43,138 nucleotides of DNA from a virus: the UHGV virus genome UHGV-0213559; one strand, written 5' to 3'. Every line of letters starts with the position of its first letter. Within the stretch, counting starts at the first letter, position 1. Shown piece after piece: positions 13,734 through 21,633 of the stretch. Under the pieces are notes generated by a model that did not search any database, had not been told where the DNA came from, and saw nothing but the letters and a program-made list of their open reading frames with translations. The translations under genes were made by a program, and so were the position numbers.

Positions 13734-15131
13734 ATGCCGCGCACTGTAACACATAATCCGGATAGCCCCAATAATGACGATGTTTTAGCCGCATCCGAAA
13801 AATGGGACGCCTGTAAACCCCCCTATACCAGCGCACACATGAAAATCTGTGTTGCTGCCGCCAAAATCATCCTCGCTGCTTCCGGCGTGGCTCGCCGTTC
13901 CAAATACGAAAAAGAGAACTATCTCCGTATCGATTTCAGCAAAGCCGGTAAGGTTACATTTTACGCCGAGTTTCCAAAAAAGATGGGCCTCAAAGGTAAA
14001 AAGCTCGGCGAGTGGCCGGAGCTCGCTATCCAGCTGGCGCGCGAAAAAGCGCTAGGTATGGCTGACGGTGGCCTGCGGGCAGAGTCCGTACATGCAGCGC
14101 TGGAAATGTACCGGGATGACCTCAAAGCCAAAGTCGCCCGGCAGAAGCTGAGCCCGGACAGTTTCACAACCTACGGGGTGCGTATCGACCGGATTAAAGC
14201 AACGTTCGGCGAGCGCGAGGTGTTCAGCGACGTAACATACAATCGGCTGGTGGAAGTGCTGGACGAGTGGATCGCCACTCGCTCGAACAATAACGCCCTG
14301 GAGTTGTTTGCCGAGCTCCGTCGGTTCTGGAAGTTCTGTGCACCTACTCTTTGCAACGGCCGCAATGTTGCCGCCAGTCTGCCAGATGATTATGTTTCCT
14401 CCCGCGTACAGAAACCTACCCCCACACGGCTTTTTACCGATATTGAATCAATCGCCCGACTCTGGCTCAATGTTGCTGCCTGCACCTCTGTACACCAGAA
14501 GAATGCTGTTCGCTTCATGATCATCACTGGCGTTCGTCCGATTAATGTCCATAACCTGCGCTGGGACTACGTTCACGAGGAGGCTGGTGAAATTGTTTAT
14601 CCGGAAGGGGTTATCGGCATGCGAGGGGCTATGAAAACACAAAAGGCTTTCCGCCTGCCGATAACACCTGAGATCCGGCGGATTATCGACGAGCAGAAAG
14701 CCTGGCGTGATTCAGTTCCTGAGTGCAACAGGGATTATGTATTTTTGCAGCCACGTGATCCAATGCAGCCATTTTCAAAACGATCACTGGATAAGCTGGT
14801 GAAAACATACAGCCCGGACGGGGCTGTAAAAGGAATAAAACATGATGGGACTGTTAAAGGGAAAGACGGTGCATTTAATACGATGTGCCGTAAATTCCTT
14901 AAGAGCAATGTTATTGCCTTGATGAAGGAAAGAGGCTATTCCCGATCAGACCGAAGGGAAATCAGCCTCCTTTGCCTTCACCACTCCAGCAAGTCAGATG
15001 ACCCGATGGCAGAACATTACGACTTTTCTGATGAGATTTTGCAGGAAGAGATTGCGTTAAAGCGCGAAGCTTTCGAGGCTCACGAGCGGAGCATACTTGC
15101 GCAGGTTGCATTGCTACGGCGGCGAGGTTAA
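13734..15131 (+). CDS. int: tyrosine integrase (P4-like family)
   Basis: 465 aa from ATG 13734 with AAGGA SD (ORF track starts at TTG 13728); length, composition and position next to an AlpA-like gene fit a phage integrase. Confidence 0.75.
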   Translation: MPRTVTHNPDSPNNDDVLAASEKWDACKPPYTSAHMKICVAAAKIILAASGVARRSKYEKENYLRIDFSKAGKVTFYAEFPKKMGLKGKKLGEWPELAIQLAREKALGMADGGLRAESVHAALEMYRDDLKAKVARQKLSPDSFTTYGVRIDRIKATFGEREVFSDVTYNRLVEVLDEWIATRSNNNALELFAELRRFWKFCAPTLCNGRNVAASLPDDYVSSRVQKPTPTRLFTDIESIARLWLNVAACTSVHQKNAVRFMIITGVRPINVHNLRWDYVHEEAGEIVYPEGVIGMRGAMKTQKAFRLPITPEIRRIIDEQKAWRDSVPECNRDYVFLQPRDPMQPFSKRSLDKLVKTYSPDGAVKGIKHDGTVKGKDGAFNTMCRKFLKSNVIALMKERGYSRSDRREISLLCLHHSSKSDDPMAEHYDFSDEILQEEIALKREAFEAHERSILAQVALLRRRG

Positions 15132-15328
15132 TACTGGCTGCGACACTTTTGAATAAAAGCGTCGACATTTCGGCGCTCATAACGAACTACTTTTGCACTG
15201 AAACGAATTGGTCCCAGGATAGCCCGATGACGATGCTTAATATTCCACTCACATAGCGTTTTCTGTGTAATACCTAACTTTTGGCATACTTCATCCGGGG
15301 TGAGTAAATCGTCGGGTTTCTCGCTCAT
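15128..15328 (-). CDS. xis: AlpA-family excisionase / DNA-binding regulator
   Basis: 66 aa from internal ATG (MSEKPDDLLTPDEVCQKLGITQKTLCEW...); helix-turn-helix-like; its start overlaps the stop of the upstream helicase gene. Confidence 0.55.
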   Translation of the reverse strand: MSEKPDDLLTPDEVCQKLGITQKTLCEWNIKHRHRAILGPIRFSAKVVRYERRNVDAFIQKCRSQY

Positions 15329-16722
15329 GCTATACCTCTCTTTTTCATGGCATCGAGCAGGATGTCCTGCACTGTTCGTTTTGAGTTGCGCCGCTCCATC
15401 ACCATTTCGTCCATAGTGTCGGCGGCAATAATGTGGTGAATGAACACCGGGCGGTTGTGTCCGGCCTGAATCTGCCGGGTTGGCCCGATGCGTTCGATAA
15501 TTTGTTGGTACTGCTCCAGATCCCACCAGTGCGAGAAAAACACCAGTATGTTTCCGCCGTCCTGCATGTTCAGGCCGTGGCCCGCGCTGGCTGGGTGTGC
15601 AAAGAGAACAGGAATCTTTCCGGAATTCCAGTCGCGCAGTGTCTGTGGATCCTGGTCGAGGTGACGACTGCGAGGGAATGCTTTAAGCAAGCGTTCAAGA
15701 TCGTGTTTCCAGTGATAAGCAACCAGCACAGGTGCGCCAGCTGCTTCGGTCAGTATGCTGTCCAGCGCCTGTAGTTTGGTGTCATGCAGTTCTGACCAAC
15801 TTCCGGTGTCGTCTGTGTATACTGCGCCACTGGCGATTTGAAGACACTTCAGTGTCTTTGCCGCGGCGTTCGGTGCTTCGATGCCTTCGCCATTCAGCTC
15901 GAGGAACATTTCCTTTTCCATTTCACGATACTGCTGACGGGCCTTCGGCGGCATATCCACGCGGATTACGTTATGGATGGGGTCTTTGATATCGAACCAG
16001 TCGGCCGCATCCAGCGAGAGGGTCACATCGGCTAACGCTCGCTGTATTTCAGCCTGTGAGTGAGCAAACGGCTCCAGTTTGGTCCAGCTCTGCCCCGGAA
16101 ACTGTATCGAGTTGAACCAGCGTGAGGTAAACGCGCCGTAAGTGCGCCCGAGACGTTGTCCCTGGTCCACAAACCACGATTGTCCCCACAAATCTACCAG
16201 GCCGTTCGGTGCTGGCGTACCGGTGAGATTTATCCAGCGCCGGACATACTTATGCGCCACTTTGCCCAGCGCCGCCGCGCGCTTACCACCACCTCGCAGC
16301 CGGAAGGATTTTAGCCGGGTGCTTTCATCCGGAATGACAGTACCGAACGGCCATCGTTCTCCCAATTCCTCAACCAGCCAGACAAGGTTATCGTAGTTGA
16401 TTGTGAACACGCTCGCGTTGCTGTTCGCCAGCGCTGTAGAGCGCGCTTTGGCGTTACCGATGATCGGCTGTACCTCAATATTACGCAGATGCCCCCATTT
16501 AACAGCTTCATCAGGCCAGGTGCTTGCTGCAACGCGTAGCGGCGCGAGGACCAGCGCGGGGCGTGTTTCTGTTCCAGCCATGAAAAGATCTTCCAGCGTG
16601 GTGAGTGTCGCTACGGTTTTACCCATTCCCATACCTGCCCAGATGTTGCAGCGCATAATGTCGACTTGATGATTGATGATGAGATCTTGGTAGGGGTGAG
16701 GTGAAAATATAGCATAGTCCAT
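15325..16722 (-). CDS. SNF2/DEAD-like superfamily 2 helicase
   Basis: Walker A GMGMGKT and motif II DEST visible in the translated ORF. Confidence 0.7.
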   Translation of the reverse strand: MDYAIFSPHPYQDLIINHQVDIMRCNIWAGMGMGKTVATLTTLEDLFMAGTETRPALVLAPLRVAASTWPDEAVKWGHLRNIEVQPIIGNAKARSTALANSNASVFTINYDNLVWLVEELGERWPFGTVIPDESTRLKSFRLRGGGKRAAALGKVAHKYVRRWINLTGTPAPNGLVDLWGQSWFVDQGQRLGRTYGAFTSRWFNSIQFPGQSWTKLEPFAHSQAEIQRALADVTLSLDAADWFDIKDPIHNVIRVDMPPKARQQYREMEKEMFLELNGEGIEAPNAAAKTLKCLQIASGAVYTDDTGSWSELHDTKLQALDSILTEAAGAPVLVAYHWKHDLERLLKAFPRSRHLDQDPQTLRDWNSGKIPVLFAHPASAGHGLNMQDGGNILVFFSHWWDLEQYQQIIERIGPTRQIQAGHNRPVFIHHIIAADTMDEMVMERRNSKRTVQDILLDAMKKRGIA

Positions 16723-16789
16723 GGTATTGTATCTCCATGAATGAACTTATGTAGTAATAGCTTAATTATTTATTTCGAAAGGAACAGTT

Positions 16790-17668
16790 ATGACCTCAGC
16801 TTATACAGATGTACAGCAAGAAGAAAATATTACTGATAAATTAGTTGTTAAATATGATGGTCCCGCACTAGCAGATCATAAAATAGATTTGGATGTTTTA
16901 ACTGAGTCATTGAATGGACTAAACAACTTGCTTAAAGAAGTTAATTTGGTTGTCAATGGCACTAGTGAGTGTATTAATGTTGAGGTTGAGCCTTTTAAGG
17001 AAGGCTCATTTGAGTATTTGATTGATGTTATTCAAAATCCACTTGACCATTTGAATATATTAAGCATTATTGGGCTTGGAGGTACAACTGCACTCGCAGC
17101 AGGAAATACTCTCATTGACTTAATTCGTCAGATCAATGGTAGGCAAATAAAACGGTTGACTTTAACAGCGGAAGGAGACTGTAAAATAGTTATGGATGAT
17201 GGTGAGGAAATTATAGCCCCGTCATATTTCCGACCTTTACTTGCCTCACCAAGCATACGCAAATCCTTATCGAAGTTAATTCATAAACCTTTGCAAAAGG
17301 AAGGATACGAATCGCTTAAAATTTCAACTCAACAGGGGGTTGAGCTGATTAAGGTGCACGAAGATAATATTGAACCGTTCAGATATAGGCGCGTTCCTGT
17401 AGTGCAGTCCTTGTCTGAAAGGGTGATTGAAGAGGCTCTAATCACATTTTTGACTATTCATAAGGATAAAAACACAGGCTGGCGAGTCAACTATGGCGAT
17501 GACACAATCAGCGTGTCTATAGAAGATACTGAGTTCTTACAACGTGTTAGTACGGGAAGAGAACCTGGTGTTTTTAGTGATGCTTACTTCGTTGATTTGC
17601 TCGTCCGTGAGAACTTGAATTCGCTGGACAAAACGTACATAGTTGTTAAAGTACACGGCATCTTATAG
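16790..17668 (+). CDS. hypothetical protein (292 aa), first gene of an AT-rich plus-strand cassette
   Basis: AAGGA SD 7 nt upstream of the ATG; no recognisable catalytic motif; opposite in orientation to the flanking replication operon. Confidence 0.5.
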   Translation: MTSAYTDVQQEENITDKLVVKYDGPALADHKIDLDVLTESLNGLNNLLKEVNLVVNGTSECINVEVEPFKEGSFEYLIDVIQNPLDHLNILSIIGLGGTTALAAGNTLIDLIRQINGRQIKRLTLTAEGDCKIVMDDGEEIIAPSYFRPLLASPSIRKSLSKLIHKPLQKEGYESLKISTQQGVELIKVHEDNIEPFRYRRVPVVQSLSERVIEEALITFLTIHKDKNTGWRVNYGDDTISVSIEDTEFLQRVSTGREPGVFSDAYFVDLLVRENLNSLDKTYIVVKVHGIL

Positions 17669-17691
17669 TAGATTCACATGGGGAGGGGGCT

Positions 17692-17940
17692 ATGATTGCT
17701 TTTGCTTTTTGGCTGGCTTTTTTTAGCCTGCTTCCCGTACTATATTGGGTTCTTAAGATGGGGTTTGACCGGTTACGCTTTGCGCTTATGCCTAAACATC
17801 ATCTTGTTCTTGAATGTGTTGACTCAGAAGGAGTTGTCCGTCGCGATGTCGTTGATGTCTCCTCTGATGATGAATTTTACAAAATTGCAATGAATGCCAT
17901 TCGTGCTGGAAGATCAGTCAAAGGAGGGACGTTTGAGTAG
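17692..17940 (+). CDS. small membrane protein (82 aa)
   Basis: N-terminal hydrophobic helix (IAFAFWLAFFSLLPVLYWVL); 23 nt downstream of the 292-aa gene. Confidence 0.4.
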   Translation: MIAFAFWLAFFSLLPVLYWVLKMGFDRLRFALMPKHHLVLECVDSEGVVRRDVVDVSSDDEFYKIAMNAIRAGRSVKGGTFE

Positions 17941-18463
17941 CGCTTCTAAACCTGATAGCTACGAAAAAGTCCCTCTGATTTCTAATGTTGCTGCTGGTGG
18001 CATCATTGGTTTTTTAACATTACTGGTGTCCTCGTGGGACGGTCGTTTTCCGTATATTGGTTCTGATTTAAATACAATAAAGCCATTTCTTTTATTAATG
18101 CTTCCCAGTTGCGCTATGTTTCTGGCGCATTGGATAAAGTCGATTGGGTTTAAATGGTCCTTAGGTAGCGTTAATCGACAGTTATTAAGCATTAATAAGA
18201 AGAAAGAAAAAGAACTTCGCCGTGATATTGAAAAGTACAAAAATGTTATTTCTAATGAAAAGATAGAGGACTTTAAAAGTCAACTTGAACAAGTATTACA
18301 AGATCGTCATGATATTATTTCTAATAATTACGCACAGAAACTAAGAGAAAGAAATTATACGCAAGAAAAATATCATGAGCATAAACAAACCGCTGCAAAT
18401 GATAATATTGAGCTGCAAAGCATACTGGAGAATCAGAAGTTCAATCAAAAAGGCATTGACTAA
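17933..18463 (+). CDS. membrane protein with charged coiled-coil-like C-terminus (about 176 aa)
   Basis: strong AAGGAGGG SD 5 nt before an in-frame TTG at 17933 (ORF track starts at ATG 17894); two hydrophobic segments then a Lys/Glu-rich tail. Confidence 0.4.
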   Translation: MSSASKPDSYEKVPLISNVAAGGIIGFLTLLVSSWDGRFPYIGSDLNTIKPFLLLMLPSCAMFLAHWIKSIGFKWSLGSVNRQLLSINKKKEKELRRDIEKYKNVISNEKIEDFKSQLEQVLQDRHDIISNNYAQKLRERNYTQEKYHEHKQTAANDNIELQSILENQKFNQKGID

Positions 18464-18467
18464 ATTT

Positions 18468-18737
18468 TTATAATATCCTCTCTAGGTTCTTGCTATCCAG
18501 CACCACTACGGTAAAGCCCAGTTTTCGCAGACGTTCATGTTCGCGCAATTGGTCAGGCCGTGGTGGCTTGCCGGGAGATTTACATTCAACGAAAACGATA
18601 CGACCACCTGGTAGCAGGACAATGCGATCCGGTACCGAGCGGTGACCGGGAGATACAAACTTAAAGGCCACTCCGCCAGCTTTTTTCACTTCAGCGACGA
18701 GATGCTTTTCGATAAGGCTTTCACGTTCATAGGCCAT
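18468..18737 (-). CDS. VRR-NUC domain nuclease
   Basis: PD-(D/E)xK-like signature ...PDRIVLL...VFVECKSPGK...; start taken at internal ATG (MAYERESL), ORF track extends to 18764. Confidence 0.55.
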   Translation of the reverse strand: MAYERESLIEKHLVAEVKKAGGVAFKFVSPGHRSVPDRIVLLPGGRIVFVECKSPGKPPRPDQLREHERLRKLGFTVVVLDSKNLERIL

Positions 18738-19026
18738 CTGAATCCCACTCTTCAAAAAGCACATTCAATTCCAGTTTCTCTGCCAACGCGTTTTCTGCAC
18801 GTGCGCCAGCAGAGTACTCCCACTCTTTGAGCATATAAATCGTATCGGCACAGCGAAGCATTGCGAGGCAGATGTCCATATACTGAGCCTGTGTCAAACC
18901 ATTGGGTAAAGTTGCGGGGTTAAGCACAACATATCCCTTGTCCGTTAGCCTCTTTGCTGCGGAATGAAAAGCCGGGCGGTTAAATTGCTCGTAACCGCTC
19001 ATCGGCCCGGCAACGTAAACGATCAT
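18727..19026 (-). CDS. DUF4406 / nucleoside 2-deoxyribosyltransferase-like protein
   Basis: N-terminal MIVYVAGPMSG resembles the Rossmann-like start of that family (from memory). Confidence 0.4.
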   Translation of the reverse strand: MIVYVAGPMSGYEQFNRPAFHSAAKRLTDKGYVVLNPATLPNGLTQAQYMDICLAMLRCADTIYMLKEWEYSAGARAENALAEKLELNVLFEEWDSDGL

Positions 19027-19238
19027 TCTTCGACCGCCTTACGCTTTTCACGCATATTCTGCATCAGGCAAAAATCAGATCTGCGTTCACTCCATTCCTG
19101 ATTCAGTTCGTGATGTGATTCGCGGTTGGCTTTTGCCCAGACCTTCGCTGCCCGGTCATATTCGCCGGATTGTTCAAGTCGCAAAGCCTCCCTTGCAGCC
19201 CTGTAATAAAGTGGATTGTCCCGGTATTTAAATGACAT
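19023..19238 (-). CDS. hypothetical small protein (71 aa)
   Basis: ORF-track ORF coupled to its neighbours in the leftward operon. Confidence 0.4.
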   Translation of the reverse strand: MSFKYRDNPLYYRAAREALRLEQSGEYDRAAKVWAKANRESHHELNQEWSERRSDFCLMQNMREKRKAVEE

Positions 19239-21363: not shown

Positions 21364-21633
21364 GTGTTTAGCTTTGGTATCGGAATACTTTCATTGATAG
21401 GTATTATTGCTTTCCCCATTCTTTATATTTTAGGGAGAATAGTTCGGGCTGGTGGCGCATGGCTCGAACGTGAAGAAGGTCCTAAGGATCGTGTTCTTCC
21501 CAAAATTATAATTTTTGCGCTTATTGGGTTCTTTCTTGGGTGTTTGGCTCAGCCTGTATGGGACAGCATTTCGGCATGTAGAGACTATGGCAATCCAATA
21601 GGGAAATGTCTTTTTAAATTCAATGAATTTTAA
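21364..21633 (+). CDS. small two-helix membrane protein (89 aa), cargo gene
   Basis: GTG start with AAGGAG SD 7 nt upstream; two hydrophobic helices; opposite strand to the surrounding operon; hairpin plus T-run downstream. Confidence 0.45.
   Translation: MFSFGIGILSLIGIIAFPILYILGRIVRAGGAWLEREEGPKDRVLPKIIIFALIGFFLGCLAQPVWDSISACRDYGNPIGKCLFKFNEF

Follow-up and report, generated by a model that had tools for sequence, protein, structure and literature searches.

A prophage-borne three-gene cassette in Escherichia coli, most likely a gammaproteobacterial variant of the gp29/gp30 defence family

UHGV virus genome UHGV-0213559 (43,138 nt; this whole stretch is called the window here) is a segment of an Escherichia coli chromosome with a prophage integrated beside yfhL/shoB, and it is 99.9-100% identical to strain TB06051. 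Inside the leftward early operon of this prophage lies a cassette of three plus-strand genes, encoding a soluble protein (A) and two small membrane proteins (B and C). Because protein A groups by sequence with gp29 of mycobacteriophage MichelleMyBell (MMB), a validated prophage defence, a defence role of the cassette is strongly suggested, and the cassette is most likely a new gammaproteobacterial variant of this known, mechanistically unsolved defence system. Our favoured reading, to which we assign a probability of about 0.5, is that the cassette is a prophage-carried, mobile anti-phage module, a three-gene gammaproteobacterial variant of the gp29/gp30 family in which A would be the sensor and toxin and B and C would form a membrane complex. 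An earlier reading of the window made without database searches (the sequence-only reading) had proposed an undescribed system here. This proposal stands in part: A and the gp29 family are already catalogued (NF053583, PDC-S42, PHROG 3243 and a DefenseFinder label), but the membrane partner pair B/C and the three-gene architecture appear to be new. The three genes, as called from open reading frames (ORFs), are as follows.

Gene A, 16790-17668, plus strand: soluble protein of 292 amino acids (aa), ATG start
Gene B, 17692-17940, plus strand: protein of 82 aa, ATG start
Gene C, 17933-18463, plus strand: protein of 176 aa, TTG start

Protein A and the gp29/LAPAL family

The sequence-only reading had seen no recognisable motif in the three proteins, and for protein A this proved wrong. 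A matches the curated NCBIfam model NF053583 (LAPAL_fam; product name 'LAPAL motif-containing putative phage structural protein') with 193.8 bits against a cutoff of 60, the PADLOC model PDC-S42 (PDLC05015) with an E value of 2.9e-40 over residues 17-288 of 292, and phrog_3243 (PHROG 3243) with an E value of 6e-100; its N-terminus also gives a sub-threshold match to Pfam DUF7946. MMB gp29 (310 aa), for which the mycobacteriophage genome KF986246 was used as reference, matches the same two models (NF053583, 181.4 bits, cutoff 60; PDLC05015, E 1.6e-16). Profile comparison with hhalign aligned the protein A clade with gp29 over 234 collinear columns (Prob 96.2, E 2e-9), and the broad family, represented by 80 distant members, aligned with both gp29 (Prob 98.6, E 6.6e-16) and the A clade (Prob 100, E 1e-65). 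A and gp29 have the motifs P-x-K/E-x-GSF, WR and V-x-(I/V)-ED-x-(E/K)-FL-x-RV-x-x-G in common. In addition, an orthologue of A in the Vibrio prophage PQ189332 (43% identity) is labelled MMB_gp29_gp30__gp29, a DefenseFinder model name. These matches show that A is a full-length member of the MMB gp29 / LAPAL (NF053583) / PDC-S42 family. An exhaustive profile search at E <= 1e-3 recovered 3,648 clusters (50% identity) of this family, and among the 150 best-scoring matches nearly all are full-length proteins of about 280-350 aa. A literature search for PDC-S42, DUF7946 or the LAPAL motif found no papers.

The primary description of MMB gp29/gp30 is that of Dedrick et al. 2017, Nat Microbiol 2:16251. 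The system is a prophage defence of the abortive-infection type (PMC6426606, PMC8549241, PMC11856565). It permits adsorption and DNA injection and acts afterwards (PMC6426606), lowers the plating of phage Tweety by 4-5 logs, an effect that tuned variants of Tweety gp54 counteract (PMC8549241); gp29 is cited at second hand as toxic, and gp30 as a putative membrane protein, in PMC11856565. A survey of cultured phage genomes (bioRxiv 10.64898/2026.05.06.722914) reports 23 detections of MMB_gp29_gp30.

The MMB system and the cassette are both prophage-encoded, their larger proteins are collinear within one hidden Markov model (HMM) family, and small membrane protein genes lie next downstream in both. 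They differ in that MMB has one partner, the 67-aa gp30 with two transmembrane (TM) helices, whereas the cassette has two, the one-TM B and the two-TM C; in that the host is Mycobacterium there and a gammaproteobacterium here; and in that a defence phenotype is known for MMB. The LAPAL motif itself is lost in the A clade, where it reads LTESL. Measured against the MMB_gp29_gp30 model, A thus supplies the gp29-family protein of about 300 aa with a full-length model match, while the position of the overlapping, downstream 2-TM gp30 homologue is held by unrelated membrane proteins. Measured against PDC-S42, A supplies the HMM match but is not a stand-alone gene, B and C following it. The solo genes catalogued as PDC-S42/LAPAL_fam (about 3,600 clusters) are full-length members of the same family as A and stand in contexts that resemble defence islands; they differ in being catalogued as single genes, whereas the A clade always comes with B and C.

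An AlphaFold2 model of A built from 63 sequences (pLDDT 83.3, pTM 0.64) begins with a strand and a long helix, followed by a beta-hairpin that ends in the invariant GSF. After the hairpin, a Gly-rich, semi-hydrophobic helix-loop-helix (about residues 85-115) is modelled poorly; it leads into a middle domain of mixed alpha/beta structure and then, at residues 208-291, into a C-terminal five-stranded OB-like barrel of beta1-3/helix/beta4-5 topology. G24, G72, W231, D246 and F249 are invariant. Foldseek searches of the Protein Data Bank (PDB) with two AlphaFold2 models of A (pLDDT 76 and 83) gave no match at E < 1e-3, and the sole consistent local matches were to OB folds (RPA70N, Rfa1-N, the Rim1 single-stranded DNA-binding protein (SSB) and a ligase OB domain; 79-93 residues, probability 0.97-0.99). 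A BFVD search with A returned only uncharacterised viral proteins, and sequence and profile searches with A, the broad family and C found no match among PDB sequences. The Gly-rich, semi-hydrophobic segment (about residues 85-112 of A) is conserved in position across the family, with a mean best 19-residue Kyte-Doolittle score of 1.5-1.6 and a score above 1.6 in half of the distant members.

In one distant family member (P0055), residues 85-138, at the hydrophobic segment, give a weak, sub-threshold match to the Pfam family EACC1 (Effector Associated Constant Component 1; E 0.017). This match may be due to chance, though it falls on a region flagged as possibly membrane-active.

Membrane proteins B and C and inheritance of the cassette as a unit

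Protein B has one N-terminal hydrophobic helix (residues 1-25) and then an acidic C-terminal domain of about 55 aa, which is predicted to be cytoplasmic by the positive-inside rule. Protein C has two hydrophobic helices (residues 13-34 and 46-71) and then a proline-free, 36% charged tail of 99 aa, predicted to be helical and, by the same rule, cytoplasmic. The single-helix and the two-helix, charged-tail membrane proteins described by the sequence-only reading are therefore both borne out. Alignments show conservation of TM and soluble-domain residues in both proteins, and W7, F10, P15, Y18, H36, E41, G47 and F62 of B are invariant among 13 orthologues. B and C correspond to phrog_15510 and phrog_15878, respectively, both of 'unknown function'; neither protein, singly or as a family, matched Pfam, PADLOC or NCBIfam, and no PDB relatives of either were found. 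MMB gp30 is 67 aa long with two hydrophobic helices, and its gene overlaps the end of gp29; gp30-like 2-TM genes are kept in all examined actinophage relatives with full-length gp29.

In all 27 loci with an A protein of at least 43% identity, B-like and C-like genes lie directly downstream (one locus is cut by a contig end), with the same sizes and the B/C overlap throughout. The Vibrio prophage PQ189332 adds a further locus of the same arrangement. Together the A-B-C loci cover at least seven different genomic contexts, listed here, and the three genes are inherited as a horizontally mobile unit.

SNF2/VRR-NUC slot: E. coli and two other viral-contig prophages (L014, L015)
Between integrase and an AlpA-like gene (int-xis junction): another prophage
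Within a tail/baseplate module: Pantoea
Beside type I restriction-modification (R-M), Fic and Mrr_N genes, in an element with D5 primase and Mob: Aeromonas
Near SIR2-like, Bro-N, KilA-N and ParE genes, at the end of a P2-like prophage: Celerinatantimonas
Adjoining metH: Photobacterium
Adjoining the integrase of a PM2-like (Vinavirales) prophage: Vibrio, PQ189332

PQ189332 is Vibrio phage 10N.286.45.F8_PE001, a 14.4-kb non-tailed prophage with A-B-C at 1276-2880. Because the cassette is also present in this non-tailed Vinavirales prophage, it crosses between tailed and non-tailed temperate phages. With R-M, Fic and Mrr_N genes beside the Aeromonas copies and SIR2-like and ParE genes near the Celerinatantimonas copy, the unit is found in defence islands as well as in defence hotspots. 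A tblastn search of plasmids with A gave a single match, at 28% identity, and the cassette is therefore not plasmid-borne to any extent. Searches of viral contigs for related loci gave nothing usable, whether the query was the broad alignment or a single distant protein.

More distant members of the family were solo genes in all eight loci examined (six of them distinct), with no downstream membrane protein and with a type IIG R-M gene, an AbiJ-like gene or a cI-type repressor as neighbour. Three architectures are thus seen in the superfamily: solo, gp29 + gp30, and A + B + C, the last of which is catalogued in none of the libraries searched.

In a Patescibacteria (Vogelbacteria) genome, one solo gene (L048 3001-3909) and a type IIG (Eco57I/MmeI-like) R-M gene are convergent. 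Another, in a metagenomic contig (L052 3001-5330), is followed directly by an AbiJ_NTD3/Abi_C gene. Either setting would fit a defence island.

The insertion site and the cargo of the prophage operon

The leftward early operon of the prophage, on the minus strand, comprises DUF2800, DUF2815, Nmad5, DNA polymerase, ANR, DUF4406, VRR-NUC and SNF2 helicase genes and ends by the integrase. The cassette (1745 bp) takes up exactly the stretch that separates the SNF2 start codon, at 16722, from the VRR-NUC stop codon, at 18468, and the features around its genes are as follows.

SNF2-family helicase gene, left flank, 15325-16722, minus strand: prophage backbone outside the cassette, leftward replication operon
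AT-rich leader of 67 nt, 16723-16789, plus strand: carries the AAGGA Shine-Dalgarno motif of gene A
VRR-NUC nuclease gene, right flank, 18468-18764 (18468-18737 with the RefSeq start), minus strand: convergent, stop 4 nt from the gene C stop

The sequence-only reading suggested looking for relatives in which the helicase and VRR-NUC genes adjoin without the insert, and E. coli B379 has such an empty site: the two genes adjoin directly there, the stop of VRR-NUC overlapping the start of SNF2 by 4 nt. In a junction alignment, homology to this site ends exactly at 16722/16723 and at about 18464-18468. These breaks fall on the start codon of SNF2 and the stop codon of VRR-NUC, and the insert is therefore 16723-18467. 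The SNF2...VRR-NUC backbone occurs in 159 of 5,426 complete E. coli genomes, and the cassette in 17 of these 159, always at 99.3% identity or above. The cassette is thus an insertion of accessory cargo in a variable prophage slot, as had been supposed, and not a core gene present in all relatives, which the same reading had named as the finding that would count against it.

The three genes, their own ribosome-binding sites and their flanks are as first described. Shine-Dalgarno motifs precede each gene (AAGGA for A, GGGGAGGGGG for B and AGGAGG at 17922-17927 for C), and the TTG of gene C at 17933 begins 5 nt past the AGGAGG. A longer in-frame alternative for gene C (ATG 17894, 189 aa) was rejected, since the orthologues, phrog_15878, RefSeq and the Shine-Dalgarno motif all favour TTG 17933. 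The B stop and the C start overlap by 8 nt, and through this overlap the two genes are translationally coupled. The opposite strand of the 67-nt leader provides the SNF2 gene, now uncoupled, with a GGAG Shine-Dalgarno motif. A scan of the cassette borders turned up neither a sigma-70 promoter nor a terminator, and the gene C and VRR-NUC stops have no terminator between them. The observation that the cassette is richer in AT than its neighbours also stands: its GC content is 37.7%, against 54.8% for SNF2, 49.2% for VRR-NUC and 49% for the whole window. Because the ratios of non-synonymous to synonymous substitution (dN/dS) against orthologues are low (A, 0.08; B, 0.11-0.15; C, 0.07), A, B and C are real genes under strong purifying selection. 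An Rfam scan of the cassette gave no credible match. A weak match to the Bacillus small RNA ncr952 over the leader (16697-16791, plus strand), which scores 22 bits (E 0.038) where the gathering score is 100, is almost certainly due to chance in AT-rich sequence.

Other genes replace the cassette elsewhere. In a sister prophage, the SNF2/VRR-NUC slot is occupied by a full-length BstA gene (PADLOC E 2.5e-110), on the plus strand like the cassette, together with a Dcm methylase; other occupants in sister prophages are a DUF6338 protein with a small ORF, Rha/Arc/Ant genes, YfbU and methyltransferases, and in phage vB_EcoM-689R2 the slot holds a 305-aa protein with a weak TIR match. The BstA and TIR-domain proteins share the identical junction with the cassette but are unrelated to its proteins, being alternatives at a hotspot and not homologues. 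Because BstA, TIR-like and methyltransferase genes replace the cassette elsewhere, the junction is a defence cargo hotspot of this prophage family that holds BstA, a TIR-like gene or the cassette.

Further intervals of the same operon vary as well. Between VRR-NUC and the DNA polymerase gene, the window has DUF4406 and ANR genes (18727-19238, minus strand), and sister prophages also have a 253-aa TIR protein there (L001 3105-3866; L034 3569-4330) that matches PADLOC PDC-S35 with an E value of 1e-108 and Pfam CAP12-PCTIR_TIR. The interval is thus a third variable slot, one in which relatives have defence genes. Between the DNA polymerase and Nmad5 genes lies a second plus-strand insert in the minus-strand operon (21364-21633), an 89-aa ORF with two hydrophobic helices and no Pfam or PADLOC match. 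vB_EcoM-689R2 has a different plus-strand gene at that position (L001 6041-6670), and the interval may be another cargo slot. The gap between integrase and SNF2 is filled by a 66-aa AlpA/excisionase-like helix-turn-helix (HTH) ORF at about 15128-15328 on the minus strand (MSEKPDDLLTPDEVCQKLGIT...); it is unannotated in the near-identical RefSeq record NZ_CM129850, and an AlpA/HTH regulator is annotated there in other genomes.

Proposed mechanism, alternatives and meaning

In the mechanism that we propose, A would be a cytoplasmic sensor and toxic effector, whose conserved Gly-rich segment and C-terminal OB-like barrel could bind a phage protein or single-stranded DNA. B and C would form an inner-membrane complex in which the acidic domain of B and the helical tail of C hold A inactive or localise it, thereby taking for A the role that the unrelated 2-TM gp30 is thought to play for gp29. 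When a sensitive phage infects, A would be set free or activated, and growth would stop or the membrane be damaged before progeny are made, so that the infection aborts. The plus-strand orientation against the leftward early operon might allow expression in the lysogen and antisense damping of the cassette upon prophage induction; this idea stays speculation, because no promoter was found in the 67-nt leader. We take A to be an effector in its own right because the eight distant loci examined are solo, by which the family should be self-sufficient, because gp29 is, at second hand, reported to be toxic, and because A has the Gly-rich segment and the barrel.

Several observations weigh against this mechanism. 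The invariant residues of A, in our judgement, resemble no known catalytic set and point to no catalytic site, and its fold has no relative among solved structures. With a Kyte-Doolittle score of about 1.4-1.6, the hydrophobic segment is a borderline case that a buried helix could also explain. The solo status of the distant relatives comes from a small sample, and the toxicity of gp29 is taken from the secondary citation in PMC11856565. The comparison of B and C with gp30 gave no homology (hhalign Prob 1.4 for the B family and 0.3 for the C family), so a gp30-like role for them is an analogy only. Finally, the promoter scan of the leader found no convincing sigma-70 promoter.

The sequence-only reading likened the layout to Rex-like exclusion modules. 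A cytoplasmic protein with small membrane proteins is indeed present, but there is no relation to RexAB. Lambda RexA/RexB, CarolAnn gp44/gp43 and Sbash gp30/gp31 are lysogenically expressed and give abortive infection (PMC6426606). They share with the cassette a prophage origin and the pairing of a cytoplasmic with a membrane protein (PMC6426606); they differ from it in having two genes instead of three and four-TM membrane proteins (RexB, gp43 and gp31) where B has one TM helix and C two, and they have no sequence or fold relationship with it. None of the cassette proteins matched DUF4747 or Rex in Pfam or PADLOC at E <= 1, and membership in RexAB was rejected, there being no DUF4747/RexA-like protein, no four-TM RexB-like protein and no family match. 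Under a Rex-like mechanism, A would serve only to sense infection in the cytoplasm, and the effector would be an ion channel or pore formed by B and C together; on detecting infection A would open it, the membrane would depolarise and the infection would abort, as in RexA/RexB or CarolAnn gp44/gp43. The pairing of one soluble protein with membrane proteins, the translational coupling of B and C, the two TM helices of C with a long helical tail that could oligomerise, and the established place of the Rex and CarolAnn models in prophage defence (PMC6426606) all speak for such a pore, which we nevertheless regard as rather unlikely. The eight distant A-family loci have no membrane partner and yet stand in defence contexts, which argues that A should have an effector function of its own; gp29 is the component that PMC11856565 reports, second-hand, as toxic; homology to RexA/DUF4747 or RexB is absent; and two small proteins with three TM helices in all offer little to build a channel from unless they form oligomers. 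Because of the solo relatives and the reported gp29 toxin, A as effector is preferred over a pore formed by B and C.

It is improbable that the cassette is a toxin-antitoxin-like addiction module, or another lysogenic-conversion module, that keeps the prophage or island stable or alters host physiology and has no direct anti-phage role. The cassette is always on mobile elements, PDC-S42 is merely a candidate defence family in PADLOC, and the family includes, by the second-hand statement in PMC11856565, a toxic member with a small adjacent partner; against this, a family member has a demonstrated defence phenotype (PMC8549241), bona fide defence genes take the slot in relatives, and R-M, AbiJ and SIR2-like genes are neighbours elsewhere. 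We give slightly less credence to superinfection exclusion at the envelope, in which B and C would block the entry of incoming phage DNA (like Charlie gp32, SieA or T4 Imm) and A would be accessory or regulatory. The homologous MMB system acts after adsorption and DNA injection (PMC6426606), the largest and best-conserved component is cytoplasmic, and nearly all of the mass of B and C is predicted to be cytoplasmic as well, although exclusion is a common role of small prophage-encoded inner-membrane proteins (PMC9262239, Charlie gp32) and B and C are predicted to lie in the inner membrane, facing the periplasm only by short loops. A core phage function, as a structural protein or as a replication or recombination accessory of the SNF2/VRR-NUC operon, is very improbable. 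The NCBIfam product name, the Pantoea copy inside a tail/baseplate module and the resemblance of the C-terminal barrel of A to the OB folds of SSB, RPA and ligase would fit it, but the cassette is found in 17 of 159 related prophages and is absent at the empty site, it runs opposite to the operon with a foreign GC content, and it or its relatives occur at int-xis junctions, in a non-tailed Vinavirales prophage, in a non-phage R-M island and on Patescibacteria chromosomes. A structural or replication role was rejected for its patchy distribution and opposite orientation.

A bolder extension of the favoured reading, that of an anti-phage module with A as sensor and toxin, is possible, and we put it forward tentatively. 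The gp29/LAPAL superfamily may be a membrane-directed abortive-infection effector that took on unrelated membrane partners on at least two occasions (gp30 in actinophages, B + C in gammaproteobacteria). B/C would then act as a new inner-membrane sensor or anchor made of two proteins, through which a signal from the envelope or from DNA entry would bring about the release of a toxic OB-fold effector.

The gp29/gp30 system is validated as defence, its mechanism is unsolved, and its family (PDC-S42/LAPAL) spans thousands of clusters without a solved structure. A relative resident in E. coli offers a genetically easy host and standard phage panels for asking what the family senses and how it kills. 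The A clade is under-described in the catalogues: PADLOC treats it as a single gene, and in the one DefenseFinder label seen (PQ189332) only the gp29-like gene is marked. The SNF2/VRR-NUC junction is a defence hotspot that can be mined further. If the superfamily has indeed recruited membrane partners in this way, the cassette would represent a three-component architecture without a described counterpart, and one that is tractable in E. coli.

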